Source: Oscillospiraceae bacterium
Lineage (GTDB): Bacteria; Bacillota; Clostridia; Oscillospirales; Acutalibacteraceae
Direction of reading: 5' to 3'
Assembly: GCA_902796905.1 (NCBI GenBank)
Contig: CADBQU010000032.1
Coordinates: 992 to 64,991, forward strand
Length of the DNA stretch: 64,000 bases
The notes under the pieces were generated by a model. The model did no database searches, was not told the origin of the DNA, and saw nothing but the letters and a program-made list of their open reading frames with translations. This document shows positions 3,484 to 62,652 of this stretch, piece by piece. Within the stretch, counting starts at the first letter, position 1, and each line of letters starts with the position of its first letter. The translations under genes and the position numbers were made by a program.

Positions 3484-3702
3484 TTTGAATATAATATTCG
3501 CAGACAAAGCAAAGCCAATGCTTTGCTTTAAAAGGCTTTGCCTTTTGGAACCTCCGTTCCGTCTGCTTTATTGAAATTTCAAAATTATTTTTGCGTTGCA
3601 AAAATACAGCCCACGCTGCTCAAAGCCTATGGCTTTGAATTTTGAATATAATATTCGCAAACAAAGCAAAGCTAAAGCTTTGTTTTAAAAGGCTTTGCCT
3701 TT
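3484..3702. repeat. Cluster of repeat-element copies containing a 62-bp direct duplication (3484-3545 and 3641-3702)
   Basis: 'tttgaatataatattcgcaRacaaagcaaagc..gctttg.tttaaaaggctttgccttt' occurs twice with a few substitutions. Additional hairpins lie between the copies (caaagcc-tat-ggctttg at about 3621-3637). Confidence 0.8.
3500..3566. repeat. Four-way-junction (FWJ) intergenic element, divergent sequence variant
   Basis: Outer stem gcagac/gtctgc encloses three perfect hairpins: aaagcaaagc-caat-gctttgcttt, aaaaggc-ttt-gcctttt and ggaac-ctcc-gttcc. There are no unpaired junction bases. Confidence 0.8.
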
Positions 3703-3762
3703 AAATTTATGTACCAATGCTTTTAAATAACTAAAACCTTTTAATGTATTTTAATAAAAAAG

Positions 3763-3795
3763 CCCCGAAAACCGCAAAGGTTTTCGGGGTTGAAT
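3763..3795 (-). terminator. Rho-independent terminator of rplM-rpsI
   Basis: ccccgaaaacc / ggttttcgggg hairpin (3763-3789). On the minus strand it is followed by cttttttatt. Confidence 0.65.
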
Positions 3796-3821
3796 ATTTC
3801 GAAAAAACGAAAATATACAAA

Positions 3822-4220
3822 TTATCTCTTTGAGAACTGAGGTGCACGACGGGCGCCTTTTAAACCGTATTTCTTTCTTTCCTTCATTCTCGGATCACGA
3901 GTGAGAAGACCGGCTTTTTTAAGCAACGGACGAAATTCTTCGTCTGCCGACAATAAAGCCCTTGAAAGGCCATGACGGATAGCACCTGCTTGGCCTGTAA
4001 CTCCGCCGCCGGTTACATTACAAACTATATCGAATTTACCTTCTGTGTTTGTTATGTTTAACGGCTGACGAACGATTAATTTTAAAGTTTCAAGACCGAA
4101 ATAATCATCAATATCCCTATTGTTTACAGTGATTTTTCCGGTACCGTTATAAACTCTTACACGGGCAACAGAACTTTTTCTTCTGCCTGTGCCGTAAAAA
4201 TATGGCTTTCCTTCAAACAT
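3822..4220 (-). CDS. rpsI: 30S ribosomal protein S9
   Basis: 132 aa. Contains '[19 protein letters not shown]' and ends with the C-terminal '...RRAPQFSKR'. Confidence 0.97.
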
Positions 4221-4237
4221 TTATTCTGTCTCCCTTC

Positions 4238-4666
4238 TTAAAATTCCAATACTTCGGGTTTTTGAGCCGCATGGATATGCTCGGCGTCTTTATAAACACG
4301 AAGTCTGGTTAATGCTTTTCTGCCTAAAGTGTTGTCGGGCAACATACCTTTAACAGCTTTGGTCATTGCAAATTCCGGTTTTTCGGCCATTAAAGTTTTG
4401 TAATTAACTTCTTTTAAAGAACCGATGTAACCTGTGTGATGATAGTATTTTTTGCCTATAAGTTTATTACCTGTTAAAACAGCGTCTTTTGCATTAATAA
4501 TAATAACAAAATCTCCGCAGTCAACATGAGGAGTAAACTCCGGCTTAATTTTACCTCTTAAAATATCGGCGGCTTTGGCAGCTGTACGGCCCAAAGGTTT
4601 TCCTGCCGCATCAATAATATACCATTTACGCTGAATATCCTGAGGTTTTGCCATAAATGTAGACAT
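4238..4666 (-). CDS. rplM: 50S ribosomal protein L13
   Basis: 142 aa, N-terminus '[22 protein letters not shown]'. GGGAGG Shine-Dalgarno. Lies immediately upstream of rpsI, the conserved gene order. Confidence 0.97.
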
Positions 4667-4954
4667 AATTTTTCCTCCCTTTTTTCATTAAGCCTAATAA
4701 TTTTAGCACAAGGAAAAGTTAAAGTCAACCAAAATTTATAAAAAAATTAATAATTTTTACAATATCTCTTTTTTTCTTTTATTTTCTCTTAAATACTCTT
4801 AAATGCTCGTTAAAAAAATAAAAAATTCAACTCTCTTTACAAAGACCGAATATTTGCTATAATAGTATTAGTCAACAATATATTCATGTTAAATATTTAG
4901 GTTAAATATTTAGGTTAAAAAATTTTGTTATATTTAAATTTTAAGGAGAAAAAA

Positions 4955-5956
4955 ATGGCAAACAAAGCTATTAACGAACTACCTGTTTTTAAAATAAAAC
5001 AAAACACACAAGGCATTTTTCCTTTAACAATATTTACCGCGGCTTTTACCGCCGTAACGGTTTTACTTTATTTAAATAATAACGGGGCTTTTATAATAAC
5101 CGGATTTTTAACCGTTTTTCTCTTTGTTATTTTTGTGAGCGTTATTTTTAAATTGTTATTTAATAAGCTTATAATTTACAAAAACGGTTTTTATTTTAAA
5201 ACCAATATGTTTAACGGAAAATTTTATAAATTTAACGATATTTTAAAATTTTGGGTTTCTTACGGCAAAACAAGCAACGGGACCCTGCAAAATTGTTTAA
5301 ATTTTAAAACAATTGATACCGAGACAAAAAATATTTCCGTTTTAAAATTTTTATATTGCGATTTTTTAAATGAAGACGCAGTAGATTTTTTATCAAAAAA
5401 CATAAAGCCCAAAGCAATCGGCAGCGATTTTCAAAATTACTGCCCAAAAAGCCTTAATACACCTAATAATTACGATTTTATTATAACCGGAAAGGAAAAT
5501 TCCGGCTTTAGAATTTTTATAAGCTTTGCCTGTTTTTTAATATTTTTATATTTAAGCATAAATACGGCGCTGCACAACAAAATCAACAATTCAAATACTA
5601 TTTATTTTATTGGTTTTTTTGCAATAACTCTGCTGCTTTTTATAGCTTTAACAAAATTAACAGTGCGATATTTTTGCTTTAAAATTTTAATTTATAAAAA
5701 CGGTTTTTACCTAAAAACCAATATGTTTAACGGAAAATTTTATAATTTTAACGAAGTTAAAAGCTGTAAAATAACCACGGTAAGCCGATTGCTGCACTCT
5801 AAAAGCGGCTTTGAAATTTTTTACCGCGATTATTGCATTATTGATTTAAAAAACAAAAAAACTTTAAAAATACAATTTGAAAAATATCTTTATTACACAG
5901 AATTTGACGTTTTAAAAGAAAGGTCGCAAAACAACAGCAAAGCAATTGCTGATTAA
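4955..5956 (+). CDS. Hypothetical membrane protein with an internal two-fold duplication
   Basis: Start moved to the ATG at 4955 (AAGGAG at 4943-4948). '(I/L)IYKNGFY(F/L)KTNMFNGKFY(K/N)FN(D/E)' occurs twice, each time after a pair of hydrophobic helices. Confidence 0.6.
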   Translation: MANKAINELPVFKIKQNTQGIFPLTIFTAAFTAVTVLLYLNNNGAFIITGFLTVFLFVIFVSVIFKLLFNKLIIYKNGFYFKTNMFNGKFYKFNDILKFWVSYGKTSNGTLQNCLNFKTIDTETKNISVLKFLYCDFLNEDAVDFLSKNIKPKAIGSDFQNYCPKSLNTPNNYDFIITGKENSGFRIFISFACFLIFLYLSINTALHNKINNSNTIYFIGFFAITLLLFIALTKLTVRYFCFKILIYKNGFYLKTNMFNGKFYNFNEVKSCKITTVSRLLHSKSGFEIFYRDYCIIDLKNKKTLKIQFEKYLYYTEFDVLKERSQNNSKAIAD

Positions 5957-7559: not shown

Positions 7560-7979
7560 ACCTGAGTTAGTCGGACGGCTGCGGAAAACGGGCTTTAATT
7601 TAAGCCTTGCGTTTTCTGAGGAAAGTCCGAGCATCGTAGGGCGGAATAACGGCTAACGGCCGCCGTGGGCAACCATAGGACGAGTGCAACAGAGATATAC
7701 CGCCGATTTTTTGCCGTAACGATTTTATTTTTTAAAATTCGTTTCGGTTTTTGGTAAGGGTGGAAAGGTGCGGTAAGAGCGCACCGGGCCGATAGGTAAC
7801 TATCGGCTTATGTAAACTCTATTCGATGCAACACCAACCGAAACTATACGCTTGCCCGGCGTGTTTCAAAAGGTGGCTGGAGCGCAGGAGCAATTCTGCG
7901 TCGAGATAGATGGTCGTCTTTAATATAGGAATTTATTTTCTATATTAAAACAGAACTCGGCTTACAGACTGACTCAGGT
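7560..7979 (+). ncRNA. rnpB: RNase P RNA
   Basis: Universal P4 strands 'gaggaaagtccgagc' (7618-7632) and 'acagaactcggcttacag' (7950-7967), with compensatory ccgag/ctcgg. A 13-bp P1 forms between 7560-7572 and 7967-7979. Confidence 0.9.
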
Positions 7980-8099
7980 TTAATAAATATTTTAAATGAT
8001 ATTTAAAATATATTTAAACGTTATATTTTTTATTTTTGTATTATGCGCTTTGGCATTACCGTATTTTGATATATTTTTATAATATTATGGGAGAATATT

Positions 8100-8712: not shown

Positions 8713-8806
8713 GGGCGAAGCCCAAAGCCCGAAGCCTAAAAGGCTTCGGGCTTTAACAAAAGCAAAGCTTTTGTTCCGAAAACCTCTGGTTTTCGGGGCT
8801 TCGCCC
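8713..8806 (-). repeat. FWJ intergenic element, order C-B-A
   Basis: Outer stem gggcgaagcc/ggcttcgccc. Hairpins aaagcccgaagcc-taaaa-ggcttcgggcttt, aacaaaagc-aaa-gcttttgtt and ccgaaaacc-tct-ggttttcgg. Confidence 0.9.
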
Positions 8807-8895
8807 GCAGCACCGTAAAACTTTAAAAACCGATTTCGGACAAAAAATCCAAAATCGGTTTTATTTTTTGTTTTATTTTTTTATATTTGTAAAAA

Positions 8896-11432: not shown

Positions 11433-11524
11433 GGCGGCAAGCCCCCCAAAAAACATTTATGTTTTTTGGGCAAAAGCCAAGGCTTTTGCAAAGCCCGAAT
11501 TTTTCGGGCTTTGGGCTTGCCGCC
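11433..11524 (+). repeat. FWJ intergenic element, order A-B-C
   Basis: Outer stem ggcggcaagccc/gggcttgccgcc. Hairpins cccaaaaaaca..tgttttttggg, caaaagcc-aa-ggcttttg and caaagcccgaa-ttt-ttcgggctttg. Confidence 0.9.
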
Positions 11525-13387: not shown

Positions 13388-13496
13388 GGGGCGCCAAGCC
13401 CAAATCCCGAAAGCATCTTTCGGGATTTGGCAAAAGCTTTAAAGCTTTTGCGCCGTACAAAGCCTTTTTGGCTTTGTACGGCGAGCTTGGCGCCCC
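13388..13496. repeat. FWJ intergenic element, variant (C-B-C')
   Basis: 12-bp outer stem ggggcgccaagc/gcttggcgcccc. Hairpins ccaaatcccgaaa..tttcgggatttgg, caaaagct-ttaa-agcttttg and cgccgtacaaagcc-ttttt-ggctttgtacggcg. Confidence 0.9.
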
Positions 13497-13619: not shown

Positions 13620-16298
13620 CTATGCTTTGGCCTTAAGCCAGGTTTTGCCATCGTTTGCAGAGGATATTAAAGGTACTTTTAATTTTGCCGCATTTTGCAT
13701 TTCTTCTTCTAAAATACGCTTTGCTTTTTCCTTATCTTTAACATCGCTTTCCAAAATAAGTTCATCGTGAATCTGCAAAATCAAATCGGCGTTAATTTTT
13801 TCCTCTTTTAATCTTTTATATACATTTACCATAGCTATTTTAATAATATCCGCAGCGGTGCCCTGTATAGGCATATTTCTTGCAACCCTTTCGCCAAAAG
13901 CCCTTATCATATGATTACTGTTTTTAAGCTCCGGCAAATATCGGCGCCTGTTGTAAAGGCTGGTAACAAATCCCTGTTCTTTGGCTTTTTCTACTACTTC
14001 TTCCATATATTTTTCAATATTGGGATAAGTATTAAAATACCCCTTTATAAGCTCCGCGGCTTCATTCCTCGAAATGCCTATATCTTTTGCAAGCGAAAAA
14101 GCTCCTATGCCATAAACTATACCGAAATTAACCGCTTTTGCTCTGCTTCTTAAAGCAGGTGTTATAAATTTTTCGGGTAAATTAAAAACCTTTGAAGCGG
14201 TTATGGTATGAATATCCTCGTTTGACAAAAACGCCTCTATCATATTTTTATCATTTGCTATCGAAGCCAAAACCCTTAACTCTATTTGAGAATAATCGGC
14301 GTCTATTAAAGTTTTTCCTTCTCTTGCAACAAAAAATTTCCTTAATTTTTTACCTTCTTCTCTTCGTACGGGAATATTCTGCAAATTAGGTTCCAACGAA
14401 CTTATTCTGCCTGTTTTTGTTTCGGTTTGATTAAATGTTGTGTGAATTACTCCGTTTTTGTCAGCATTTTTTAAAAGACCGTCGCAATAGGTGCTTTTAA
14501 GCTTTGCAATAACTCTGTACTCTAAAATTTTAGGTATAATTTCGTGTTGGTCTTTTAAAGACTCCAAAACCTCGGCGGAAGTTGAATATCCCGATTTTGT
14601 TTTCTTTTTTGCCGGAAGATTTAATTTTTCAAATAATATAACTCCCAACTGTTTAGGAGAATTAACATTAAATTTTTCGCCCGCAAGATTTTCTATTTCC
14701 GTAAGCAGTTGAGAAAGCCGTATTTCAAGCTCTTCATCCATATTTTTTAATCCTGTTTTATCAATTTTAAATCCCACGGTTTCCATATCCGCCAAAACAA
14801 GACTTAAAGGCATTTCCACATCGCAAAAAAGTTTGTACTGATTAGTTTCTTTTAAAAGCTCTTTTAATTTATAAAAAAGCAAATATCCTTTTACGGCTTC
14901 GGTTTCGGCCGCCGTAATTAAAAGCTCTTCATTTGTATTTTCTTCTTTTGCGCTTTCTTCTTTTTCTTTACCGTTTTCTGTTTTTGAATTTTCGATTTTG
15001 GTATTAAAAACACCTATATATTCGTTAAACATCCCTTCGGTTTTATAATTGCTTTTGTCGGGACTTAATAAATACCCTGCCAAAGAGCAATCAAATAAAG
15101 CCAACGGCAATAAAACATTTTTTTCGTTTTCCTTTTTCTCTTCGTTTTTACTTTCGCTTTCTTTTGTGCCGTTAACGGTATTGTTTTTTAAAAGTATTTT
15201 ATAAATTTCTTTTGAATTGGAAGTTACGATGTTTTTTATATTTGCTTTTAAAAATTCTTCGGTTTGTTCTTTGTTTAAAGTATCAAAGCCGTTTTTAAAA
15301 GCTATAGCCGAACCGTTTTCGGTTAAATTTACAAAAACCGCTCCCTTGGTATATCGGCATTTTTTAAAAAGTAATTCGCTTTCTTCCAAAGAGGAGCTTT
15401 TAGCGGAAGTTTCGTCTTCTGTAGGTTCGTTCTGAAGATTGTATTTTTCCAAAAGCTTAAAAAATTCCAGCTTTCTTAAAAGCTTTGCGGTTTCTTTTTT
15501 ATTTACCGGTTTAAATTTATAATCGTTAAAGTTTAACGAAATAGGAACCTCTTTATATATTGTACCTAAAAAATAACTTAAATAAGCGTTTTCTTTATCT
15601 TTAATAAGTTTTGTTCTTACGCCTTCTTTTATTAACGGGCTGTTTATATTTTCATATACTCCGTTTAAAGACCCAAAGTTTTTAATAAGCTCTATTCCCG
15701 TTTTTTCGCCTATTCCGGCTACGCCCGGAATTTTATCCGACTGATCTCCCATAAGCGCTTTTAAATCTATTAACTGTTTTGGAGTTAAACCGTATTTTTC
15801 CAGTACTGTTTCGGGAGTCATTTTTAAAATTTCGGGTCTTGCGAATTTTGTGGTGGCAAGCAAAACGGAAGTTTCTTTAGATACCAATTGCAAGCTGTCT
15901 TTATCGCCGGTAGAAATAACACAAACATTTTCGTTTTGTTCGGCAGAAAAACTTAAAGTGCCCAAAATATCGTCCGCTTCGTAACCTTCTTTTTCTAAAC
16001 AGGTATAGCCTAAATCCGTTAAAAGTTCTTTTAAAATAGGCACTTGCATTCGTAATTCTTCGGGCATAGGTTTTCTTCCTGCTTTATAACCAGCATATTT
16101 TTTATGCCTAAAAGTAGGGCTTTTAAGGTCAAAAGCTATAACCGCTCCGTCCGGATTTTCGGTTTCCAGCAGTTTGTTTAAAATATTCATAAACCCGTAA
16201 ATTCCGTTGGTGTAAATACCGGTTTTGGTTGAAAGTAATTTTATTCCGTAAAAAGCTCGGTTTATTATACTGTTGCCGTCTACAGCCAAAAGTTTCAT
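13620..16298 (-). CDS. polA: DNA polymerase I
   Basis: 892 aa. 5'-nuclease N-terminus. Pol motifs 'DYSQIELR', 'RSRAKAVNFGIVYG' and 'QIHDELILE'. The central 3'-5' exo-like region lacks a DxE motif and carries a K/E/N-rich insert. AAGGAG Shine-Dalgarno. Confidence 0.97.
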   Translation of the reverse strand: MKLLAVDGNSIINRAFYGIKLLSTKTGIYTNGIYGFMNILNKLLETENPDGAVIAFDLKSPTFRHKKYAGYKAGRKPMPEELRMQVPILKELLTDLGYTCLEKEGYEADDILGTLSFSAEQNENVCVISTGDKDSLQLVSKETSVLLATTKFARPEILKMTPETVLEKYGLTPKQLIDLKALMGDQSDKIPGVAGIGEKTGIELIKNFGSLNGVYENINSPLIKEGVRTKLIKDKENAYLSYFLGTIYKEVPISLNFNDYKFKPVNKKETAKLLRKLEFFKLLEKYNLQNEPTEDETSAKSSSLEESELLFKKCRYTKGAVFVNLTENGSAIAFKNGFDTLNKEQTEEFLKANIKNIVTSNSKEIYKILLKNNTVNGTKESESKNEEKKENEKNVLLPLALFDCSLAGYLLSPDKSNYKTEGMFNEYIGVFNTKIENSKTENGKEKEESAKEENTNEELLITAAETEAVKGYLLFYKLKELLKETNQYKLFCDVEMPLSLVLADMETVGFKIDKTGLKNMDEELEIRLSQLLTEIENLAGEKFNVNSPKQLGVILFEKLNLPAKKKTKSGYSTSAEVLESLKDQHEIIPKILEYRVIAKLKSTYCDGLLKNADKNGVIHTTFNQTETKTGRISSLEPNLQNIPVRREEGKKLRKFFVAREGKTLIDADYSQIELRVLASIANDKNMIEAFLSNEDIHTITASKVFNLPEKFITPALRSRAKAVNFGIVYGIGAFSLAKDIGISRNEAAELIKGYFNTYPNIEKYMEEVVEKAKEQGFVTSLYNRRRYLPELKNSNHMIRAFGERVARNMPIQGTAADIIKIAMVNVYKRLKEEKINADLILQIHDELILESDVKDKEKAKRILEEEMQNAAKLKVPLISSANDGKTWLKAKA

Positions 16299-16407: not shown

Positions 16408-16491
16408 GGGCGGCAGCCCCCAAAAAAAATTGTTTTTGGGGCAAAAGCTTTTAAAGCTTTTGCAAAGCTCAAAGAGCTTTGGGCTGCCGCC
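16408..16491 (+). repeat. FWJ intergenic element, order A-B-C
   Basis: Outer stem gggcggcagcc/ggctgccgcc. Hairpins ccccaaaaa..tttttgggg, caaaagctt-ttaa-agcttttg and caaagctc-aaa-gagctttg. Confidence 0.9.
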
Positions 16492-16492
16492 A

Positions 16493-16769
16493 TAGTGTGA
16501 CAGGACTCGAATCTGCCGCGGTTTCGCTCGCCGCATTTTAGATTGCGGCTTTGCGTTCATTTTTGCAAGGCGTTAGCCTTGCTGCAAATTTCTCGCTTCG
16601 CCGAATAAAAAATCCTGCGGCAGAAACTTTTAACCTATCGAAACTGAAAATTTTGTTATAAGACGAAGCCGATAAAACGCAGGAATACTGTCGTATTTCA
16701 AGTTTTGAGGCAATGTATTATACAAAATTTTGTTTCGTAGGCGTGACAGGTTCGAGTCCTGTCACACTA
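16493..16769. ncRNA. Candidate structured RNA (or MITE-like element) with a tRNA-type T-arm; family not recognised
   Basis: Perfect 19-bp terminal pairing: tagtgtgacaggactcgaa (16493-16511) with ttcgagtcctgtcacacta (16751-16769). Alternative local T-arm acagg-ttcgagt-cctgt (16746-16762). Internal helices 16513-16519/16617-16623, 16530-16535/16544-16549, 16565-16571/16576-16582 (loop gtta) and 16639-16656/16722-16737. Confidence 0.35.
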
Positions 16770-16875
16770 GGCAAGCGAGAATAATCCGAATTTTAAAAAC
16801 ACAATAAAAATAAAAAGCCAAAAAACAATAAAAAAATAAAGAAAATCAAAAATTTAAAAAACAACGGAAAATTAA

Positions 16876-17949: not shown

Positions 17950-18060
17950 GGCGGCGAGCCTTTTTTAAAAACAAAAATTTTTTTATTTTTGTTTTTAAAA
18001 TAAAATTAAAGCCAAAGCTTTAATTTTACAAAAGCCCTTTGGGCTTTTGGGCTCGCCGCC
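17950..18060 (+). repeat. FWJ intergenic element, order A-B'-C
   Basis: Outer stem ggcggcgagcc/ggctcgccgcc. Hairpins aaaaacaaaaat..atttttgttttt, taaaattaaagcc-aa-ggctttaatttta and caaaagccc-ttt-gggcttttg. Confidence 0.9.
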
Positions 18061-19300: not shown

Positions 19301-19383
19301 ACGGCGAAAACGCCTTTGGCGTTTTAAAGCCTAAAATTTTATTTTAGGCTTTGGTACAAAATTTAAAATTTTGTACCCGCCGC
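19301..19383. repeat. FWJ intergenic element, divergent variant
   Basis: Outer stem cggcg/cgccg. Hairpins aaaacgcc-tttg-gcgtttt, aaagcctaaaat-ttta-ttttaggcttt and ggtacaaaattt-aaa-attttgtacc. Confidence 0.8.
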
Positions 19384-23169: not shown

Positions 23170-23261
23170 GGGCGGCAGCCCCCAAAAACAATCAATTGTT
23201 TTTAGGGGCAAAAGCAAATTTTTTGCTTTTGCAAAGCCCTGCGGGCTTTGGGCTGCCGCCC
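23170..23261 (+). repeat. FWJ intergenic element, order A-B-C (near-consensus copy)
   Basis: 12-bp outer stem gggcggcagccc/gggctgccgccc. Hairpins ccaaaaacaa-tcaa-ttgttttt(a)gg, gcaaaagcaa-atttt-ttgcttttgc and aaagccc-tgc-gggcttt. Confidence 0.95.
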
Positions 23262-24270: not shown

Positions 24271-24364
24271 GGGCGGCAAGCCCAAAGCCCAAAGGGCTTT
24301 GCAAAAAGCAAAAATTTGCTTTTTGCGCCAAAAACAATAAATTGTTTTTGGCGGCTTGCCGCCC
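24271..24364 (-). repeat. FWJ intergenic element, order C-B-A
   Basis: Outer stem gggcggcaagcc/ggcttgccgccc. Hairpins aaagccc-aaa-gggcttt, gcaaaaagcaaa..tttgctttttgc and gccaaaaacaat-aaa-ttgtttttggc. Confidence 0.9.
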
Positions 24365-25517: not shown

Positions 25518-25628
25518 AAACGCTTTCCCCGTTTTTGTCTTAAGCCTTTATTCAGCTTTTATTTTTGGTTTTTTGTTTTAAAATTTGTTTTAAAATTTTA
25601 AATTTAGAATTTTATTTTACATAAAAAA

Positions 25629-25708
25629 GCCCCAAAGCCCTTTGGGCTTTGGCAAAAGCTTTTTTAAGCTTTTGCGCCAAAACAAAAAGTATTTTTTGTT
25701 TTTGGGGC
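25629..25708 (-). repeat. FWJ intergenic element, order C-B-A, short outer stem
   Basis: Outer stem gcccc/ggggc. Hairpins ccaaagccc-ttt-gggctttgg, caaaagctt-tttt-aagcttttg and ccaaaacaaaaa..tttttgtttttgg. Confidence 0.8.
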
Positions 25709-25798
25709 CTTTATTCCTTTATATTTTTATAATACTATAGTAAAAAAATTTTTTCAATCAAAATTAATACCTATTTTGTATATTTTTATTAAAAAATA

Positions 25799-28838: not shown

Positions 28839-28919
28839 GGGCGAAGTCCCCAAAAACCTTCGGTTTTTGGGCAAAGCTTTAGCTTTGCAAAAGGCTTTTA
28901 GCCTTTTGGGGCTTCGCCC
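28839..28919 (+). repeat. FWJ intergenic element, order A-B-C
   Basis: Outer stem gggcgaag/cttcgccc. Hairpins ccaaaaacc-ttc-ggtttttgg, gcaaagct-tt-agctttgc and aaaaggct-ttt-agcctttt. Confidence 0.9.
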
Positions 28920-33614: not shown

Positions 33615-33695
33615 GGCGGCGAAAACGCTTTGGCGTTTTTAAGCCCAAACTGTGGTTTGGGCTTAAAGAACAAAATAAATTTTGTTCTTCGCCGC
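33615..33695. repeat. FWJ intergenic element, divergent variant
   Basis: Outer stem ggcggcgaa/ttcgccgc. Hairpins aaacgc-tttg-gcgttt, ttaagcccaaac-tgtg-gtttgggcttaa and agaacaaaat-aaa-ttttgttct. Confidence 0.85.
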
Positions 33696-33702
33696 TTAAA
33701 AA

Positions 33703-35428: not shown

Positions 35429-35530
35429 GCGGCGAAAGCCAAAAACAAAAATTATGATTTTTGTTTTTGAGCAAAAGCAAAGCTTTTGCAAATCAATAAA
35501 TTTAAAAATTTATTGATTTGTTTTCGCCGC
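35429..35530 (+). repeat. FWJ intergenic element, A-B-X (third module replaced)
   Basis: Outer stem gcggcgaaa/tttcgccgc. Hairpins caaaaacaaaaat-tatg-atttttgtttttg and gcaaaagc-aaa-gcttttgc, plus a novel AT hairpin aaatcaataaattt-aaa-aatttattgattt. Confidence 0.85.
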
Positions 35531-35842: not shown

Positions 35843-35932
35843 GGCGGCAGCCCAAAGCCCTTTGGGCTTTGCAAAAGCAAGTTTGCTTTTGCCCAAAACA
35901 AAAATATATTTTTGTTTTGGGGCTTGCCGCCC
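35843..35932 (-). repeat. FWJ intergenic element, order C-B-A
   Basis: Outer stem ggcggcagccc/ggggcttgccgcc (one bulge). Hairpins caaagccc-ttt-gggctttg, caaaagcaa-gt-ttgcttttg and cccaaaacaaaaat..atttttgttttggg. Confidence 0.9.
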
Positions 35933-37470: not shown

Positions 37471-37539
37471 AATTTTTCCTCCTTAAAAAATCGCTGCGGC
37501 TTTAACGCCCTAAAGCATTTTTACCGTTGTTTGCCTAAA

Positions 37540-37631
37540 CGAAGCCCAAAGCCCGAATTTTTCGGGCTTTGCAAAAGCAAAAGAATTTGCTTTTGCACAA
37601 AACAAAAATAAATTTTTGTTTTGTGGCTTCG
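37540..37631 (-). repeat. FWJ intergenic element, order C-B-A, inside the pgk-tpiA-gpmI cluster
   Basis: Outer stem cgaagcc/ggcttcg. Hairpins caaagcccgaa-ttt-ttcgggctttg, caaaagcaaa..tttgcttttg and cacaaaacaaaaat..atttttgttttgtg. Confidence 0.9.
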
Positions 37632-37648
37632 CCCCCCGTTTTTAATCT

Positions 37649-39984: not shown

Positions 39985-40079
39985 GGCGAAGAGCCCAAAA
40001 ACAAAATAATTGTTTTTGGGTAAAATTAAAGCCGGGGCTTTAATTTTACAAAAGCCCTTCGGGCTTTGGTCTCTTCGCC
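39985..40079 (+). repeat. FWJ intergenic element, order A-B'-C
   Basis: Outer stem ggcgaagag/ctcttcgcc. Hairpins cccaaaaacaa..ttgtttttggg, taaaattaaagcc-gg-ggctttaatttta and caaaagccc-ttc-gggctttg. Confidence 0.9.
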
Positions 40080-43095: not shown

Positions 43096-43142
43096 CAAAG
43101 TCCGAAATTTTTTGGGCTTTGGAGATTTTCCAAAAACAAAAA
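43096..43142. repeat. Degenerate or truncated FWJ element at the left island junction
   Basis: A C-type hairpin caaagtcc..gggctttg, followed by only the left arm of an A-type hairpin (ccaaaaacaaaaa). Host-like sequence ends here. Confidence 0.5.
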
Positions 43143-44148: not shown

Positions 44149-44149
44149 A

Positions 44150-44656: not shown

Positions 44657-44657
44657 A

Positions 44658-45445: not shown

Positions 45446-45451
45446 GAACAA

Positions 45452-45540: not shown

Positions 45541-45590
45541 ACTATTTACAACCATAGGCATCACCTCCAATATGTAATTTCGCCGTGTTA

Positions 45591-46292: not shown

Positions 46293-46605
46293 TAAACATC
46301 AATTTCAACATTCCTTCTGCTTTCTTTAATTGCTCCTCGTCTAATTTGCCGAGATTTCTTTGCAGATATTTAAGTTCTTTTTGAGCTTCGGGTATTGGAG
46401 CATTATCCGTACTACCTAAAAGATAATCTGCGGTTGTGTCGAGAGCCTTTGCGATTCGGACAAGAACCTCGCCACTTGGGGTACGTACTCCTTTTGCATA
46501 GTAAGACATTGCCGACTCTGTAATGTTTGCTTTCTTTGCAAAATCTTTCTGTGAAAACCCTTTGGCTTTCATCAATGCGGTAAGCCTTTCACTAAATACT
46601 GACAT
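46261..46605 (-). CDS. XRE-family HTH transcriptional regulator
   Basis: 'LTALMKAKGFSQKDFAKKANITESAMSYYAKGVRTPSGEVLVRIAKALDTTADYLLG', followed by an acidic tail. AAGGAGG Shine-Dalgarno. Confidence 0.9.
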   Translation of the reverse strand: MSVFSERLTALMKAKGFSQKDFAKKANITESAMSYYAKGVRTPSGEVLVRIAKALDTTADYLLGSTDNAPIPEAQKELKYLQRNLGKLDEEQLKKAEGMLKLMFNDIFEDDDEE

Positions 46606-46638
46606 ATATCAAACCTCCTTTAATATTTGCCGATTTTC

Positions 46639-46667
46639 ATTATACTCCTAAATTATAATATTGTCAA
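46639..46667 (-). promoter_or_regulatory. Consensus promoter for xre-immA
   Basis: On the minus strand: ttgaca (46667-46662), 17 nt, tataat (46644-46639). Nearby palindromes atcttgt-gttt-acaagat (about 46713-46730) and aattgtcaatt (about 46739-46749) are operator candidates. Confidence 0.6.
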
Positions 46668-47131
46668 GTGATTTTGAATGTATTTGTATTTGAAGCCTAA
46701 ATTTAATACTATATCTTGTGTTTACAAGATAGTTGAGAATTGTCAATTATATAATCACGGCAGGGAGATTGCTCCCCCCCCTGCCGCTTTGAGTTAAAGT
46801 GCCGCCTTATTCATTGGTTTCTTCTTTTGGTGTGCGATTGGTGCTGATTTCAGCGGTAGAAATCGCCTCGATAACTGCACCGGAGACCACAACGAAAGTT
46901 AGAGAAGAAAAATTTAATGTATCATATTGGGTAAAATGCGTAAAAAACTTAACGATAATTGTGCATAAAGAAAAGGGTGTAACCCCATATCACTGAGGTT
47001 ACACCGCATTTTCAAAAATACTTCCTTATACAGCCAGGGCAAAATTTCCCGGTTTTTGTTTTTCTTATTTAATTTTTGTTTTACTTAATCTTACCAATAC
47101 TTCTTGTTTTTAGTTTTTGGACAATTTTAAT

Positions 47132-47329
47132 TTAATTAACCTGATTTGTTTGGTCCAAATCGTTTAATGCATACTGGCAGCATTGCAAAACCAGCAGATT
47201 AAAAGAAATATCGTTTTCGGAAGCTACGGAATTTAATTGCTCAAAAAGTGTTTCGGTAAATCTGACCGTTCTTGCAACATTTGCGCTTTTTAGATTTTTA
47301 TCTATCTTAAACATACACATTTCCCCCAT
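47132..47329 (-). CDS. Small ribbon-helix-helix-like DNA-binding protein (hypothetical)
   Basis: 'RTVRFTETLFEQLNSVASENDISFNLLVLQCCQYAL' has the beta-strand plus two-helix RHH pattern. The likely start is the third ATG (47314), after GGGGA. Confidence 0.4.
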   Translation of the reverse strand: MGEMCMFKIDKNLKSANVARTVRFTETLFEQLNSVASENDISFNLLVLQCCQYALNDLDQTNQVN

Positions 47330-47351
47330 AATTAGTTTATATCTGAAATGT

Positions 47352-47406
47352 GGTTATATTTATATAACCTAAAACGGTTGCATTTGTATAAATAATATGT
47401 TAATAT
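47352..47406 (+). promoter_or_regulatory. Palindromic operator candidate and promoter in the divergent region
   Basis: ggttatat-tt-atataacc (47352-47369). ttgcat (47378-47383), 17 nt, taatat (47401-47406). Confidence 0.4.
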
Positions 47407-47592
47407 ATGTATAGATGTGGAAGTTTTTGTGTTTTAGAGGTGAATGATTTGGAATGTGAAAATAAATTTTGCGTTTATATGAAAAACGGAAAATGCATTT
47501 TAGAAAAAATCTCACTTGATATTTGCGGTTTATGCAAAAGCTGCGTATATGTAAATATAAAGGACAAAACTTTAGACGCATACAAAAGTTAA
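47407..47592 (+). CDS. Small Cys-rich hypothetical protein
   Basis: 'CENKFCVYMKNGKCILEKISLDICGLCKSCVYV' contains 7 Cys in about 35 aa. The true start is probably internal (GTG or TTG after GAGGTG). Followed by a terminator. Confidence 0.3.
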   Translation: MYRCGSFCVLEVNDLECENKFCVYMKNGKCILEKISLDICGLCKSCVYVNIKDKTLDAYKS

Positions 47593-47666
47593 CTTTAAAA
47601 CCAAACTTTACATTTCCATTAGTTAAAAAACAATTTTTGTTTCTGTTTAAAATTTAATATGTTTTT

Positions 47667-47700
47667 AAAAGCATCACTTTTTGATGCTTTTTTGTTTTTT
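47667..47700 (+). terminator. Rho-independent terminator
   Basis: aaaagcatca-ctttt-tgatgctttt followed by ttgtttttt. Confidence 0.6.
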
Positions 47701-47771
47701 ATATGGTATAATCGGTTTTAAGAAAACTAAAATAAAAAAATAAAAAATTAATCAAAAATTACTGCTGCCGC

Positions 47772-47870
47772 GGGCGATACGCCCAGAGCCCAAAGGGCTT
47801 TTGTAAAATTAAAGCCAAGGCTTTAATTTTACCCCAAAAACAAATTTTGTTTTTGGGGGCTTATCGCCCC
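47772..47870 (-). repeat. FWJ intergenic element, order C-B'-A
   Basis: Outer stem gggcgata/tatcgccc. Hairpins gagccc-aaa-gggctt, gtaaaattaaagcc-aa-ggctttaattttac and cccaaaaacaaa-tt-ttgtttttggg. Confidence 0.85.
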
Positions 47871-47947
47871 AAAATTAATACAAGAACACAAAAATACAAA
47901 TACTTAATGTTACATAATGCTTACATTAAGAAACGGAGGAATAAAAA

Positions 47948-49507
47948 TTGCCGTTGGATAATATTTTTTTAGAAAAACTTGTTTTTGAACTGAAAGAGTT
48001 CCAAGGTTTATACATAGATAAAATATCTATGGGGTTAAGCGGTGAAATTATATTTTTTATAAAACGCAAAAAGCTTGTAATATCTTTACCGCTTTCGTTT
48101 ATAACCGTTACCGAAGAAAAGATTGAAAGCGCCGAAATACCCGGGAATTTTTGTATGCTTTTAAGAAAATACCTTCAAGGCGGGAAAATAGAAAAAACAG
48201 AAAAAATGCCTTTGGACAGAATAGTTAAAATTACGGTTTTAAAAAGAGATGACCTTTTTGAAATTAAATCTTACGATATTTTTATAGAACTTTTTGGTTC
48301 TAAAAGCAATTTTATTTTAACAAAAGACAATAAAATAATAGATTCGTTTTTTAGGTCCGACCTTGAAACCCAAACAAGAATAATAGCTCCGGGAGCAATT
48401 TATACTCCGCCCGAAAATACATCTTTGGGATACAGCCCTTTAATTAACCGTGAGTTGGAATTTAGGAATTGCAAAATAGAAGAACTTTTAAAAAATGCAA
48501 AGCCTACCGTTTTGGCGGACCGAAACGGAAACTATAAAGATTTTACTTTTACCGAAATTAAGCAATACGGAAATTTATATAATAATATATATTTTAAAAG
48601 CTATGCCGAATTAATAAATAATTATTTTTCTACGCTTGTAAATAAACGGAAAAATCAAAACCTTTCGGGGGAACTTAAAAAAACCGTAAAAAATGCAATT
48701 TCCCGAACCGAAAAAAAGCTTATTTTAAGAAAAAAAGATTTAGCCAATGCCGAAAAAAGCGAAGATTTAAGAATATGCGGAGAGCTTATCAAGGCAAATA
48801 TTTACAAAATAAAAAAAGGCGAAAGCTTTATTTTGGCGGAAAATTATTACAACAATAATAAAGAAATCAAAATAAAATTAAATCCGGCAAAAAGTCCGCA
48901 GGAAAATGCCGCAAAATATTTTAAAGATTACAAAAAAAGTTGCAACGCCGTAAAAACCTTGGCAGGGCTTATAGAGGAATGTGAAAAAGAGTTGGAATAT
49001 TTATATTCCGTTAACGAAGAATTAACAAGAGCACATACGGTTTCGGATATGAATGCCATAAAAGAAGAACTGCGTTTTTGCGGGATATTAAAGGGCAAAA
49101 ACAGAAACCAAAATAATAAAAGCAACAAAAACGGCGGTAAAAACGGAAGCAAAAGAAAAATTGCGGAAAAAATTAAAGAAGAAGAGTATTTGGGCTTTAA
49201 AATATTAATAGGCAGAAATAATTTGGAAAACGATCAATTGACTTTAAAAAAAGCCGATAAACAGGATATTTGGTTTCATACAAAAAATATTCCCGGAAGC
49301 CATGTGGTTATAGTTACAAACGGTAAGGAAGTTCCCAACGACGTTATAATGTTTGCCGCCCGTATTGCCGCTAAAAATTCCGCGGCAAAATTAAGTTCGG
49401 GCGTAGCGGTAGATTATACAAAAATTAAAAATGTTAAAAAACCGGCGGGAGCCAAGCCCGGAATGGTAATTTACAAAACAAACAAAACGGTTTTTGTAAC
49501 CCCTTAA
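47948..49507 (+). CDS. rqcH: RqcH / NFACT-family ribosome quality-control protein (FbpA-like)
   Basis: NFACT-N-like N-terminus, central coiled coil and C-terminal 'DIWFHTKNIPGSHVVI' (NFACT-R/DUF814). TTG start after GGAGGA. Confidence 0.85.
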   Translation: MPLDNIFLEKLVFELKEFQGLYIDKISMGLSGEIIFFIKRKKLVISLPLSFITVTEEKIESAEIPGNFCMLLRKYLQGGKIEKTEKMPLDRIVKITVLKRDDLFEIKSYDIFIELFGSKSNFILTKDNKIIDSFFRSDLETQTRIIAPGAIYTPPENTSLGYSPLINRELEFRNCKIEELLKNAKPTVLADRNGNYKDFTFTEIKQYGNLYNNIYFKSYAELINNYFSTLVNKRKNQNLSGELKKTVKNAISRTEKKLILRKKDLANAEKSEDLRICGELIKANIYKIKKGESFILAENYYNNNKEIKIKLNPAKSPQENAAKYFKDYKKSCNAVKTLAGLIEECEKELEYLYSVNEELTRAHTVSDMNAIKEELRFCGILKGKNRNQNNKSNKNGGKNGSKRKIAEKIKEEEYLGFKILIGRNNLENDQLTLKKADKQDIWFHTKNIPGSHVVIVTNGKEVPNDVIMFAARIAAKNSAAKLSSGVAVDYTKIKNVKKPAGAKPGMVIYKTNKTVFVTP

Positions 49508-53284: not shown

Positions 53285-53367
53285 GGCAAAAGCCGCCTAA
53301 AACAAATTTTTTGTTTTAGGTCAAAAGCTTCGCTTTTGCAAAGCCCAAAGGGCTTTGGGCTTTTGCC
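53285..53367 (+). repeat. FWJ element inside the V-ATPase operon (I/K gap), order A-B-C
   Basis: Outer stem ggcaaaagcc/ggcttttgcc. Hairpins taaaacaaa..tttgtttta, caaaagc-ttc-gcttttg and caaagccc-aaa-gggctttg. Confidence 0.9.
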
Positions 53368-53997: not shown

Positions 53998-54088
53998 TGG
54001 GCCCGCCGAAACAAAACTATTTTTGTTTTGGGCAAAAGCAAAAATGCTTTTGCAAGCCCGAAAATTTTCGAGCTTTGGGCTTAACCGC
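53998..54088 (+). repeat. FWJ element inside the V-ATPase operon (K/F gap), order A-B-C, degenerate outer stem
   Basis: Hairpins gaaacaaaa..ttttgttttgg, gcaaaagca-aaaa-tgcttttgc and aagcccgaaaa-tt-ttcgagcttt. The flanks no longer pair. Confidence 0.7.
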
Positions 54089-54457: not shown

Positions 54458-54548
54458 CGGCAAAAGATTAAAACAATTTTTTTAAGGCAAAAGTGATTTT
54501 TGCTTTTGTAAAGAACAAAAAGAACAGAAAGACTTTTGTTTTTGCCGT
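54458..54548. repeat. Degenerate FWJ-like element (F/E gap)
   Basis: Outer stem acggcaaaa/ttttgccgt. The B-type hairpin gcaaaagtg..ttgcttttg is recognisable. The other modules are degraded. Confidence 0.5.
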
Positions 54549-54601
54549 ACCAAAATAAACCCGTATCTATATAAACGCTATAGAATTGCAAGGTGAAAAA
54601 T

Positions 54602-58399: not shown

Positions 58400-58486
58400 G
58401 GGCGGCAAGCCCCCAAAAACAAAAATTTGTTTTTGGGGCAAAAGCTTAAGCTTTTGCCAAAGCCTTTAGGCTTTGGGCTTGCCGCC
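58400..58486 (+). repeat. FWJ element inside the V-ATPase operon (B/D gap), order A-B-C
   Basis: Outer stem gggcggcaagcc/ggcttgccgcc. Hairpins ccaaaaacaaa..tttgtttttgg, ggcaaaagctt-aagcttttgcc and aaagcc-ttt-aggcttt. Confidence 0.95.
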
Positions 58487-59175: not shown

Positions 59176-59189
59176 ATTAAATTTGATTT

Positions 59190-59266
59190 GCGGCGAAAAT
59201 AGCCCTTTGGGCTTTGGCAAAAGCAAAAGCTTTTGCCCCAAAACTTTAGTTTTGGATTTTCGCCGC
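59190..59266 (-). repeat. FWJ element after the last V-ATPase gene, order C-B-A
   Basis: Outer stem gcggcgaaaat/attttcgccgc. Hairpins agccc-ttt-gggct, ggcaaaagc-aaa-gcttttgcc and ccaaaac-ttt-agttttgg. Confidence 0.9.
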
Positions 59267-59392
59267 ATTTTAAAATTTGCAATTTTTAAAATTTTAGGTT
59301 TATTTAATATAATTTTTAAAAGAGGAATTTTTTAAAAAATTTTTTAAAGGGTATTAAAACAATATTTTAAAAGGATATAAGGATATATAATT

Positions 59393-61017: not shown

Positions 61018-61087
61018 AAAAATTCTCCTTATTTAAAAATTAAATATTTAAATATTTTTAAAGGTTTTGGCTATACGCTTTTTGTAC

Positions 61088-61137
61088 GGCGGCGAGTACA
61101 AAATTTAAAATTTTGTGCCAAAGGTGTTTTCGCCGCC
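61088..61137. repeat. Truncated FWJ element (outer stem plus one hairpin)
   Basis: Outer stem ggcggcga/tcgccgcc encloses only gtacaaaattt-aaa-attttgt, the same module as in the 19301 copy. Confidence 0.6.
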
Positions 61138-61153
61138 CTATATACCACCACTA

Positions 61154-61843
61154 TCAGTGCAAATTAGAAAAAAGCATTGCGGCAAAAACCGTTAAAATTC
61201 CGGCAATTACAAGTGAAAGACTACTTACCGCTCCTTCGGTTTCGCCTAAGTTGTAGGCTTCGGAAGTTCCTAAAATATGGGAACAGCTGCCTATTCCAAC
61301 GCCTTTTGCCACCGAGCTTTGTATTTTAAAAATTTTGCACAAAAACGGACAAAGTACACTGCCGGTAATACCCGTTATGGTTATAACGGCAACGGTTATT
61401 CCGGTGTAACCGCCTAAACTTTTTGATAAATCCATACCTATTGCAACCGTTACGGATTTTGGCAGCATTGTTACATATTCGTTGTGCGTAAATCCGAATA
61501 TTTTAGCCGCAGCCCATATACAAGATAAAGAAGTTATAACACCTGTTAAAATACCTATTGCAATAGCTTTAAAATTCTTTTTTAAAATATGGGTTTTTTC
61601 ATATAAAGGTATTGCAAAACAAACCGTTGCCGGCGTAAGCAAAAAATCTAAATATTTTGAACTGTTATAAAAAGTTTTGTACGGAATTTTAAAAATAAGT
61701 AAAATTACAATTACCAAAATAACAGCAAACAAAAAAGGATTAAACCAATTCTTTTTTATTAATTTTTTTAAATAAAATCCTAAAAAGTATGCCAATAAGC
61801 TTAAAACCGTTCCGAAAAATACGGAACTGTTTAAAAAATCCAT
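61154..61843 (-). CDS. lrgB: LrgB/CidB-family membrane protein
   Basis: 229 aa polytopic protein. 'LPKSVTVAIGMDLS' and 'GIGSCSHILGT' are LrgB-like. Lies downstream of the lrgA-like gene. Confidence 0.85.
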   Translation of the reverse strand: MDFLNSSVFFGTVLSLLAYFLGFYLKKLIKKNWFNPFLFAVILVIVILLIFKIPYKTFYNSSKYLDFLLTPATVCFAIPLYEKTHILKKNFKAIAIGILTGVITSLSCIWAAAKIFGFTHNEYVTMLPKSVTVAIGMDLSKSLGGYTGITVAVITITGITGSVLCPFLCKIFKIQSSVAKGVGIGSCSHILGTSEAYNLGETEGAVSSLSLVIAGILTVFAAMLFSNLH

Positions 61844-61905
61844 TTAAAATTTCCTTCCGTTTAAAAATAAAAACATTTAAAATAAAAACATTGTACGGTT
61901 ATATT

Positions 61906-62313
61906 TTACGGTTTAACCTTTGCTTGGGTTTTTGCTTTTTTTCCGCTTTTATTTTTATTTTCGTTTTTTAATTCTTTTAAAATAATAATGTCGGTAATTT
62001 TTCCGGCGGCAAACATTACAATTACGGTAGAAACAATTGCGGTTAAAATATATCCCAAAGCTTTAACTTTTAAAAGCTCAAAATAATTTAATAAAGATAC
62101 TGCCGAGGGAATAAGTATTATGGGCAAAATATCTATTAAAAATTCTCCGGTGGGCTTAACGTCCTGTAGTTTTATTATTTTAAAATAAAGCAACAAATAA
62201 AGAATTATTATTCCGTAAACTCCTGCAGGGATAGTTAAAGGAATAAAATAATGCAAAGCTTCCCCTATTAAAGAAACCAATAGTATAATGCTTAACTGTT
62301 TTATATATTTCAT
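61906..62313 (-). CDS. lrgA: LrgA/CidA-family holin-like protein with K-rich tail
   Basis: 4 TM helices, with 'LLVSLIGEALHYFIPLTIPAGVYGIIIL'. Confidence 0.8.
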   Translation of the reverse strand: MKYIKQLSIILLVSLIGEALHYFIPLTIPAGVYGIIILYLLLYFKIIKLQDVKPTGEFLIDILPIILIPSAVSLLNYFELLKVKALGYILTAIVSTVIVMFAAGKITDIIILKELKNENKNKSGKKAKTQAKVKP

Positions 62314-62558
62314 ATTTTCTCCGCATCCGATTTTTATACCAATATAAAAGTATTATAACATAAAATTTAAAGCTGTTGCTATATAAATTTAATATAATAA
62401 TTAATTAAAACCAATAAAATAAATTTGAATTTAATATTTTTATAGAAATTATATTAACTGTTTGTAAACAAAAAAATATGTGCATTATTTTTATTGACAA
62501 ACAAAATTCATAATGTTAAAATATGTAGCGTGCTACAGAATTAACATTTATACCGTCC

Positions 62559-62652
62559 GCGGCGGATTAAAAGGCTTTGCCTTTTAAATGCTTGCCAAAG
62601 CTTCTCTTTTGGCAAGCATTGCTTAAAACCTCCGGTTTTAAGTTTCCGCCGC
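62559..62652. repeat. FWJ intergenic element, divergent variant
   Basis: Outer stem gcggcgga/tccgccgc. Hairpins ttaaaaggc-ttt-gccttttaa, atgcttgccaaa..tttggcaagcat and ttaaaacc-tcc-ggttttaa. Confidence 0.85.

Follow-up and report, generated by a model that had tools for sequence, protein, structure and literature searches.

The intergenic DNA of a 64,000-nt stretch of contig CADBQU010000032.1 (hereafter the window) contains, about once per 2.6 kb, a unit of roughly 90 bases that is predicted to fold into a closed four-way junction, and the question is what this unit is, how it came to be so abundant and whether it serves its host. The original prediction, made from the sequence of the window, had described a dense single family of such elements, present in either orientation and built of an outer stem that encloses three hairpins, A, B and C, with few or no unpaired junction bases. 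This description was borne out by a folding scan with its controls, by a covariance model (CM) built from a single copy and by an alignment of the copies. The window was analysed together with an extension of ~7 kb to its left on contig L056, i.e. ~71 kb of one species, and the dispersal of the family is known from these ~71 kb.

Fold, sequence and pairing of the four-way elements

The window was scanned blindly with a sliding minimum free energy (MFE) fold that required exactly three branches enclosed by an outer stem of 4 bp or more, no more than 4 unpaired bases at the junction, a length of at most 140 nt and a dG/nt of at most -0.35, and each start coordinate of the original prediction was also folded individually. 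The scan returned 22-23 elements, every one at a position already listed by that prediction. They measure 67-111 nt, and their outer stem ranges from 4 to 13 bp, most copies having one of 8-13 bp; 0-2 junction bases are left free. Closed four-way junctions were absent from each of four dinucleotide shuffles of the window, the best of which reached -0.32 kcal/mol per nt, and ~75 kb of DNA from the nearest relatives gave neither an element in the same scan nor a match to the CM. As single-stranded DNA the fold is identical in shape and energy on both strands, as it is when folded as RNA, with z-scores of -7 to -14. The window thus holds 23 well-formed, 2 degenerate and 2 truncated copies (Table 1). 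Two of the copies first listed as full, 25629 and 54458, are the degenerate ones, whereas the two listed as truncated, 43096 and 61088, are indeed fragments.

The CM, seeded on copy 58401 only, detected 23 loci at E<0.01, with weaker matches at 19302 (E=0.016), 54459 (0.28) and 61088 (0.15). The better-scoring strand at each locus always reads outer stem, A-like, B-like and C-like hairpin, and outer stem again. The outer inverted repeat is G+C-rich and 8-13 bp long (GGCGGCAAGCCC...GGGCTTGCCGCC); the A-like hairpin is of the type CCAAAAACAA, the B-like one of the type GCAAAAGC or its variant TAAAATTAAAGC, and the C-like one of the type AAAGCCC or AAAAGGC. The B module as first described occurs exactly in 11 copies and the A module in 4, and every hairpin has an A-run in its 5' arm and a T-run in its 3' arm. 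The median pairwise identity among copies is 67%, and that of nearest neighbours ranges from 62 to 93%. Judged by the CM, all copies are members of one family with shared ancestry and, by analogy, its subfamilies and its degenerate and truncated copies resemble transposon populations in decay.

The two ends of the element are not equivalent. Directly past the outer stem on the C side, the tetranucleotide GTAC is found in 5 of 24 copies against a background of 0.0016 per site in the window, and positions +1 to +3 on that side are G, T and A in 13, 13 and 14 of the 24 copies, respectively. All five exact GTAC tags lie on the C side, and the opposite end of the 24 copies shows no tag signal comparable to GTA(C). 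No consistent direct repeat that would indicate a target-site duplication flanks the two ends of 23 copies.

Pairing is conserved where sequence is not. Watson-Crick pairs account for 882 of the 889 MFE pairs in the 23 copies, and G·T pairs for the other 7. The 5' arm of a copy pairs at 98-100% with its own 3' arm, and at only 46-60% with a 3' arm taken from a different copy. Because MAFFT had aligned 20 copies without keeping their structures in register (RNAalifold recovered only 3 pairs), the single-sequence model and a model-based alignment were used instead. This alignment, which is fitted to the CM and includes both strands, has 96.7% of its cells paired, compared to 60.3% in shuffles; two-sided changes were seen in all 37 pairs, the observed value being reached by none of 500 shuffles, and pairing fell to 52-58% when the partner column was shifted by one.

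A separate count used one strand per locus (24 loci, 847 stem cells, ~95% Watson-Crick) and gave 803 Watson-Crick pairs; the remaining cells were G·T in 18 cases, A·C in 10 and of another kind in 16, with 205 two-sided versus 13 one-sided changes in the stems. An RNA that is selected on one strand is normally rich in G·U intermediates. Since wobble pairs are here no commoner than plain mismatches, the pattern points to a constraint on DNA complementarity, or one acting equally on both strands, rather than on one RNA.

Genomic position, insertion and host range

Counts of gaps and positions rest on our own map of the open reading frames (ORFs) of the window, whose genes encode PolA, phosphoglycerate mutase (iPGM), PGK, TIM, an RqcH-like protein, the subunits of a V-type ATPase (V-ATPase) operon and glycoside hydrolases. 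All copies are intergenic, and they occupy 25 of the 39 gaps of at least 100 nt, so that the original statement that almost every gap longer than about 100 bp holds one was right on their intergenic location but overstated their coverage. Copies usually start 4-50 nt past a stop codon (median ~17 nt), and 13 of the 14 copies in tandem gaps are closer to the stop codon of the upstream gene, at a distance of 5-47 nt, or 97 nt for one of them. Tandem, convergent and divergent gaps are all occupied (4-5 copies in divergent ones) and both orientations occur; the A-B-C strand is the transcribed strand in 10 of the 14 tandem gaps, a proportion without statistical significance. The V-ATPase operon alone contains five copies.

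Ordinary terminators, consisting of one hairpin followed by a T-run, are separate from the elements. They are found just beyond elements 8713 and 28839 on the same transcript and beside element 27388, at ~27310, and element-free gaps have them as well (~38586 and ~59941). The flanks of the outer stem lack a T-run in most copies. As the elements lie upstream of separate terminators, they are transcribed within 3' untranslated regions (UTRs) or intercistronic RNA and are not terminators themselves.

The glycolytic region offers a direct comparison with a relative, represented by contig L049, which shares the gene order PGK-TIM-iPGM-DUF1858-TrmK with the host species. The PGK-TIM spacer is of similar length in both (185 nt in L049 and 199 nt in the host species), whereas the three spacers that hold an element in the host species are enlarged, from 14 to 178 nt (TIM-iPGM), from 12 to 169 nt (iPGM-DUF1858) and from -8 to 291 nt (DUF1858-TrmK). 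Copies also sit in the operon spacer between a rimI-like gene and tsaD and in those of the V-ATPase genes. That the family spread by copying is close to certain, given that its members share an ancestor and were inserted into spacers which are tight in the relative.

Table 1. Four-way elements of the window, with orientation of the A-B-C strand, supporting evidence and remarks
Feature	Position	Strand	Evidence and remarks
Small divergent copy, outer stem GCAGAC	3500..3566	+	MFE -32.4 kcal/mol, 0 unpaired junction bases; CM E=0.0021; DNA fold z -7.5
Four-way element	8713..8806	-	Starts 4 nt past stop at 8708; separate hairpin and T-run ~8828-8875 beyond; 93% identical to 27388
Canonical A-B-C element	11433..11524	+	MFE scan, CM; single unpaired junction C
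Element downstream of polA	13388..13496	- (weakly determined)	MFE -83.2 kcal/mol; CM 53.5 bits (-) vs 50.9 (+); GTAA after (-) orientation
Element in divergent polA/dus gap, abuts 280-nt element 16492-16770	16409..16491	+	MFE scan, CM
Element with X middle hairpin (TAAAATTAAAGC)	17950..18060	+	MFE scan, CM
Element of CGGCG subfamily	19302..19382	-	MFE scan; CM E=0.016; L068 ortholog cut by 280-nt element
Canonical element, inverted partner of 24271 across tsaD	23170..23261	+	MFE scan, CM; 89% identical to 24271
Element between rimI-like gene and tsaD	24271..24364	-	MFE scan, CM; kept in 96%-identity strain L053
Element with degenerate outer stem in window strain	25623..25714	-	CM E=2.9e-8; L053/L054 orthologs fold better, -47.3 vs -41.3 kcal/mol
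Element whose outer edge is synteny break in L053	27388..27483	-	MFE scan, CM
Element 30 nt past stop at 28950 (- strand gene)	28839..28919	+	MFE scan, CM; hairpin and T-run ~28790-28825 next on that transcript; GTAC tag
Element of CGGCG subfamily	33615..33696	-	MFE scan, CM
Element in DUF1858/trmK spacer	35429..35530	+	MFE scan, CM
Element in iPGM/DUF1858 spacer	35843..35931	-	CM; GTAC tag
Element in TIM/iPGM spacer (14 nt in relative L049)	37536..37635	-	MFE scan, CM
Element with X middle hairpin	39985..40079	+	CM
Truncated copy: one C-like hairpin and half an A arm	43096..43135	not assigned	Edge of 43-47.7 kb island
Element upstream of rqcH-like gene	47772..47869	-	MFE scan, CM
Element 17 nt past rqcH-like stop codon	49525..49616	+	MFE scan, CM
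Element in V-ATPase operon between subunits I and K	53285..53367	+	MFE scan, CM; GTAC tag
Element in V-ATPase operon after subunit K, slightly degenerate	53998..54083	+	MFE scan, CM
Degenerate copy in V-ATPase operon	54459..54549	+	MFE only -19 kcal/mol; CM E=0.28; GTAC tag kept
Element 8 nt past V-ATPase B stop codon, model seed	58401..58486	+	MFE scan, CM; GTAC tag
Element after V-ATPase subunit D	59189..59267	-	MFE scan, CM
Truncated copy: outer stem and one hairpin, GTAC before	61088..61137	not assigned	CM E=0.15
Divergent element	62559..62652	-	MFE scan, CM; L053 ortholog with paired deletion in middle hairpin

The host was placed by its DNA polymerase. PolA is found at 100% identity only in one 76.5 kb NCBI/ENA contig and a few short contigs, and the match ranking next among 5.8 billion proteins shares 61% identity; no closer relative was found in that collection. 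The named PolA homologues come from Clostridia, Oscillospiraceae and Acutalibacteraceae, and by this sequence the host is a member of the Clostridia, in keeping with the original prediction, which had pointed to Firmicute repeat catalogues. The protein itself (13620-16298) has 892 aa, compared to 835-871 aa in nearly all homologues among the matches listed, and lacks the precomputed PF22619 (DNA_polI_exo1) match present in most of these. The overlap of contig L056 with the window is 100% identical, and its ~7 kb beyond the left end contain two more closed four-way copies with other arm sequences; members of the family therefore also occur outside the window.

Searches for the element elsewhere returned no relative, and no described repeat or RNA family matched it in Rfam, in plasmids and phages or in the literature searched. 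Rfam 15 had no match to the elements at the gathering threshold or at E<=1, RNase P RNA alone passing, ARAGORN called no tRNA at the elements in the window, and blastn with one copy found nothing in plasmids and phages. The pattern GCAAAAGC..GCTTTTGC..AAAGC had 25 matches in viral contigs, all of them chance occurrences in Ala-Lys-Ala coding sequence, and a second search of viral sequence, this time for the outer stem, had 6 chance matches, none of which fits the model. The pattern TTTTGCN{0,1}AAAGCCN{3,14}GGCTTTGGGC, which occurs 7 times in the window, gave 10 single chance matches when run on GTDB species genomes and 8 when run on JGI metagenomes, again none fitting the model; since neither scan had a true match, the source genome is absent from both collections. 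A protein search with the 25 concatenated element translations, aimed at spurious ORFs annotated over copies elsewhere, had no match at E<=10. The literature searched on four-way, cloverleaf, multi-hairpin or nested palindromic bacterial repeats contained no report of a regular closed four-way junction.

Orthologous sites were compared in contigs of the same species from other samples, 96-99.8% identical to the window, and several of the differences concern the stems. The species occurs in samples ERZ27236854, ERZ27280473, ERR12020520, ERZ28613628 and ERZ28614295. Copy 11433 has in L046 an added G that pairs with the sole free junction base, a C. A 20-nt slippage deletion removes exactly one hairpin of copy 16409 in L047, and the middle hairpin of copy 62559 has lost in L053 a T in one arm and its paired A in the other. 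The middle loop of copy 27388 reads TTT in one strain and AAA in another, as expected from loop inversion. Some single substitutions between strains break stem pairs.

One difference is larger. At L053 4433-4590 (96% identity), position 27482 of the window, which is exactly where copy 27388 has its outer edge, is joined to 62448 through 46 nt of new sequence, which places the ~35 kb of essential genes between them elsewhere in that genome; either a rearrangement or a join made in assembly could be the cause.

A second structured element was noticed at 16492-16770, adjoining the 3' edge of copy 16409. It is 280 nt long, has an RNA MFE of -123 kcal/mol (z -11.2), is bounded by terminal inverted repeats that match perfectly over 19 bp (TAGTGTGACAGGACTCGAA / TTCGAGTCCTGTCACACTA), and is similar at its 3' end to the T-arm and acceptor strand of a tRNA; it had no Rfam match at E<=10 and no ARAGORN call. 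It recurs at L068 4408-4687 (96% identical, at another location) and at L045 ~310-590. The L068 copy interrupts the middle hairpin of the ortholog of four-way copy 19302, the DNA beyond being absent from the window, and to the right of the L045 copy the DNA also differs from the window. The 280-nt element is either mobile or a hot spot for integration or rearrangement, and it may target four-way elements.

Several further features of the window lie near copies or in copy-free gaps. The 453-nt convergent gap of copy 3500 contains further hairpins, and within 3486-3714 the sequence ttgaatataatattcgca(g/a)acaaagcaaagc recurs with part of this copy ~155 nt downstream, which amounts to a partial second copy (CM E=0.35). 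Copies 23170 and 24271 are each other's closest relatives (89%) and flank the housekeeping gene tsaD in inverted orientation; a composite transposon was considered and dropped, tsaD being an ordinary housekeeping gene. A region of 4.6 kb at 43200-47700 has a G+C content of 0.39-0.41, above that of its surroundings, and is probably the remnant of an integrated mobile element. It contains genes for a truncated TnpV (43325-43555), a bacterial EndoU nuclease toxin (44150-44776), a DUF4417 protein (44658-45335) and an M78 peptidase of the IrrE-like type together with an HTH repressor (45591-46605), and it has no full four-way copy but only the 43096 fragment at its left edge. It was considered whether the island had divided a single copy into this fragment and a second half near 47762, but the sequences gave no support to the idea.

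Around 46600-47950, gene orientation and GC skew change sign, with the minimum of the cumulative skew near 47-48 kb, in a 1.3 kb stretch without an ORF of at least 80 codons; this switch could be replication-related or a mere divergent operon boundary. The class A RNase P RNA gene (7563-7980, 255.8 bits) lies in a 913-nt gap without a four-way copy. The bioY/macB-like spacer (window 22362-22380; L068 1329-1363) is 162 nt long in several 97%-identity strains, compared to 101 nt in the window, and its extra ~55-60 nt include a short local duplication and do not match the element model.

Proposed propagation of the elements and competing explanations

[quoted passage not shown] We infer that the propagating form would be a folded single DNA strand, of which an enzyme encoded elsewhere would recognise and cut the Holliday-junction-like closed junction together with the GTA(C) tag, the leading candidate being a HUH/RAYT- or IS200-type single-strand transposase. 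REP/RAYT and IS200/IS605 systems act on folded single-stranded DNA, and parvoviral inverted terminal repeats (ITRs) with their Rep protein provide a structural parallel. The Watson-Crick-only compensation, the equivalence of the strands, the asymmetric foot tag and the lack of target duplication all fit such handling of folded single strands.

Only copies that keep all four helices would found new copies (founder selection among structure-competent masters), and one arm of a palindrome may template the correction of the other during replication, as known from quasipalindrome template switching; these two processes together would keep the stems perfectly Watson-Crick while the sequence drifts. 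The surviving copies would be those at sites that tolerate an insertion, between a stop codon and the terminator that follows it, and would for this reason be co-transcribed. By analogy with REP, their RNA fold of -45 to -85 kcal/mol probably blocks 3' exonucleases and dampens read-through; the upstream segment of the mRNA would be stabilised and expression within operons tuned. REP325 of E. coli was recently shown to be such a dual regulator, acting in mRNA stabilisation and in partial control of read-through (bioRxiv 10.64898/2026.03.23.713779).

Several observations weigh against this explanation. No pair of copies is more than 93% identical, and an old family kept in place by selection fits this at least as well as an active one. 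All orthologous sites examined in the other strains are occupied, so that there is no empty-site polymorphism and no direct sign of recent mobility. The original prediction had reported no transposase or RAYT-like gene in the window; this holds for RAYT, IS200-type and other transposase genes in the window and in the 7 kb extension, apart from the fragment of the TnpV accessory protein in the unrelated island. The exact GTAC is present in a minority of the copies, target-site duplications are lacking, and the strong bias towards positions just past stop codons might be due to a function in the host instead of to the tolerance of insertions there. The evidence comes, moreover, from ~71 kb of a single species and, with this much accessible and neither a mobilising gene nor an insertion polymorphism seen, the mechanism is proposed by inference.

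It is also conceivable, though we put it forward as a tentative idea that is more probably wrong than right, that the elements represent a new class of mobile DNA, in which the closed four-way single-stranded fold is itself the substrate of transposition and a structure-specific enzyme reads its shape and the GTAC tag, while the four helices would co-evolve by Watson-Crick-only compensation templated by their arms, so that in mechanism it would be neither REP nor MITE.

Selection for a role in RNA, with spread being secondary, is unlikely but has to be taken seriously. The elements would then be 3'-UTR or intercistronic modules that stop 3'-to-5' exonucleases, possibly also RNase J coming from the 5' side, or processing 'punctuation' that sets operon stoichiometry. 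Their position just past stop codons and upstream of canonical terminators, nearer to the upstream gene in nearly all tandem gaps, is what such a role predicts, as are the five V-ATPase operon copies, which bracket the high-copy K subunit, the excess of transcribed A-B-C strands in tandem gaps and a structure kept despite ~33% sequence divergence; REP elements of E. coli work in this way (bioRxiv 10.64898/2026.03.23.713779). What speaks against it is the pairing itself, in which the 18 G·U pairs are no commoner than the 26 mismatches and one-sided changes are rare. Furthermore, 4 of the 14 tandem copies are antisense, the copies in divergent gaps lie at promoters, no loop or junction nucleotide is conserved as a recognition site for a protein or RNase, and the nearest relatives run the same operons without the element.

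A function for the host at the level of DNA, with extruded junctions or cruciforms as binding or organising sites for nucleoid proteins, gyrase, RuvA, RecU or HU, or as signals in replication or recombination, would fit the strict Watson-Crick pairing and the identical fold of both strands; the A-tracts of the 5' arms and T-tracts of the 3' arms throughout, and the one synteny break exactly at an element edge, would also agree with it. The spacing of the elements is, however, irregular and their distribution tracks gene ends and not chromosome coordinates, the nearest relatives share the housekeeping machinery but not the element, and the extrusion of nested palindromes of ~90 bp from duplex DNA is energetically costly. 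Such a function is therefore quite improbable.

There is very little to recommend compound intrinsic terminators, i.e. stacked terminator hairpins. Each inner hairpin does look like a small bidirectional terminator, with A-tract, G+C core and T-tract, and most copies follow stop codons, but a T-run after the outer stem is absent from most copies, separate single-hairpin terminators with T-runs are nearby (~8828, 27310, 28790, 38586 and 59941), copies lie between the genes of conserved operons (V-ATPase, glycolytic and rimI-tsaD), and some are in divergent gaps. A tRNA origin or mimicry, either as SINE-like retro-copies or as punctuation signals for RNase P/Z, can hardly be upheld. It is suggested by the cloverleaf size, the four arms, the intergenic location that recalls tRNAs in mitochondrial punctuation and the RNase P RNA gene of the window, but the elements are seen as neither a tRNA by ARAGORN nor a family by Rfam, they leave 0-2 unpaired junction bases, lack CCA, a discriminator base and any conservation of D or T loops, their arms measure 6-16 bp versus 4-7 bp, and they are perfectly palindromic on both strands. 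Chance or an assembly artefact, in favour of which nothing was found, is practically negligible given 23 elements in the window versus none in the shuffles and relatives, and given the same elements in independent assemblies from several ENA and Logan samples.

Comparison with known repeats and significance

The four-way elements resemble REP, BIME and REPIN sequences in being high-copy, extragenic, G+C-rich palindromes of an ordinary genome that lie mostly after stop codons and in operons, are co-transcribed, form subfamilies and lack target-site duplications. The original prediction had set them apart from REP/BIME and other catalogued repeats, which is correct for their architecture, yet in function and position they are close to REP/BIME. 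REPs carry a foot tetranucleotide, GTAG or CGTC (PMC3733652); the complementary strand of the four-way element reads 5'-GTAC and then the palindrome, i.e. a tag alike in kind with another tetranucleotide. REPs are single hairpins of 20-40 nt, or pairs that form one long hairpin, with conserved mismatches in their stems, whereas the four-way element has four perfect helices within 67-111 nt and next to no free junction bases. REP hosts are Proteobacteria with RAYT, a HUH Y1 transposase, in contrast to this member of the Clostridia, in which no RAYT was found in the 71 kb examined. Effects of REP in RNA include mRNA stabilisation and partial termination (bioRxiv 10.64898/2026.03.23.713779), and REP dimers with structured spacers, as well as REPs nested in other palindromes, have been described (PMC3733652).

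Bacterial MITEs prefer AT-rich intergenic DNA and form stable RNA structures (PMC10969869). With Correia/NEMIS, ERIC, RUP, BOX, SPRITE and QMITE elements the four-way element shares that it is short, non-coding and non-autonomous, with terminal inverted repeats in the form of its outer stem, of 8-13 bp in most copies, and BOX is modular like it. MITEs, however, have a target-site duplication, fold into one long imperfect stem-loop and decay without compensation, in contrast to the absent duplication, the branched closed junction and the Watson-Crick compensation found here, and no insertion sequence that could be a parent with matching ends is present in the window or the extension.

A parallel in shape comes from viruses. 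The ITRs of parvoviruses such as adeno-associated virus (AAV) are T- or Y-shaped DNA hairpins that are nicked by the HUH protein Rep. They too consist of an outer palindrome enclosing smaller ones in a closed multi-way junction, with the nick site just outside the outer stem and the inner arms orienting the enzyme. These ITRs form three-way junctions in which a linear viral genome terminates, whereas the four-way elements are dispersed in a chromosome, no Rep gene was seen with them, and the order of their arms does not flip relative to the tag (GTAC on the C side in 5/5). Integron attC sites are single imperfect hairpins with extrahelical bases, tied to gene cassettes and an integrase. They are recognised as folded single strands and conserve structure and not sequence, as the four-way elements do, but neither cassettes nor an integrase accompany the latter. 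Selfish palindromes of organelles, namely Volvox repeats, GC clusters of yeast mitochondria and fungal double-hairpin elements, are short hairpin-forming repeats that populate the intergenic DNA of a single lineage, are lacking in its relatives and are regarded as probably selfish (PMC2670323, PMC4478555); they have one or two hairpins and no closing outer stem, unlike the closed four-way element.

In its behaviour the element is similar to REPs and MITEs, yet it departs from both in defining features, and it is not a tRNA, a terminator or an Rfam family. Not being a single hairpin of 20-40 nt and having a tag other than GTAG or CGTC, it cannot be filed as a REP; having no target duplication, it does not fit a MITE. 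If the explanation favoured above is right, the interspersed repeats of bacteria range from single hairpins up to a fully closed four-way junction, and the elements would be an unusually clean natural case in which covariation at the DNA level, i.e. Watson-Crick only, can be separated from covariation at the RNA level. That explanation predicts a structure-specific mobilising enzyme in this uncultured lineage of Clostridia, which could serve as a tool for single-strand DNA insertion. For the host species, the elements break short-read assemblies, most contigs being 2-6 kb long and, located as they are inside essential operons, they probably shape the expression of its glycolytic and V-ATPase genes.

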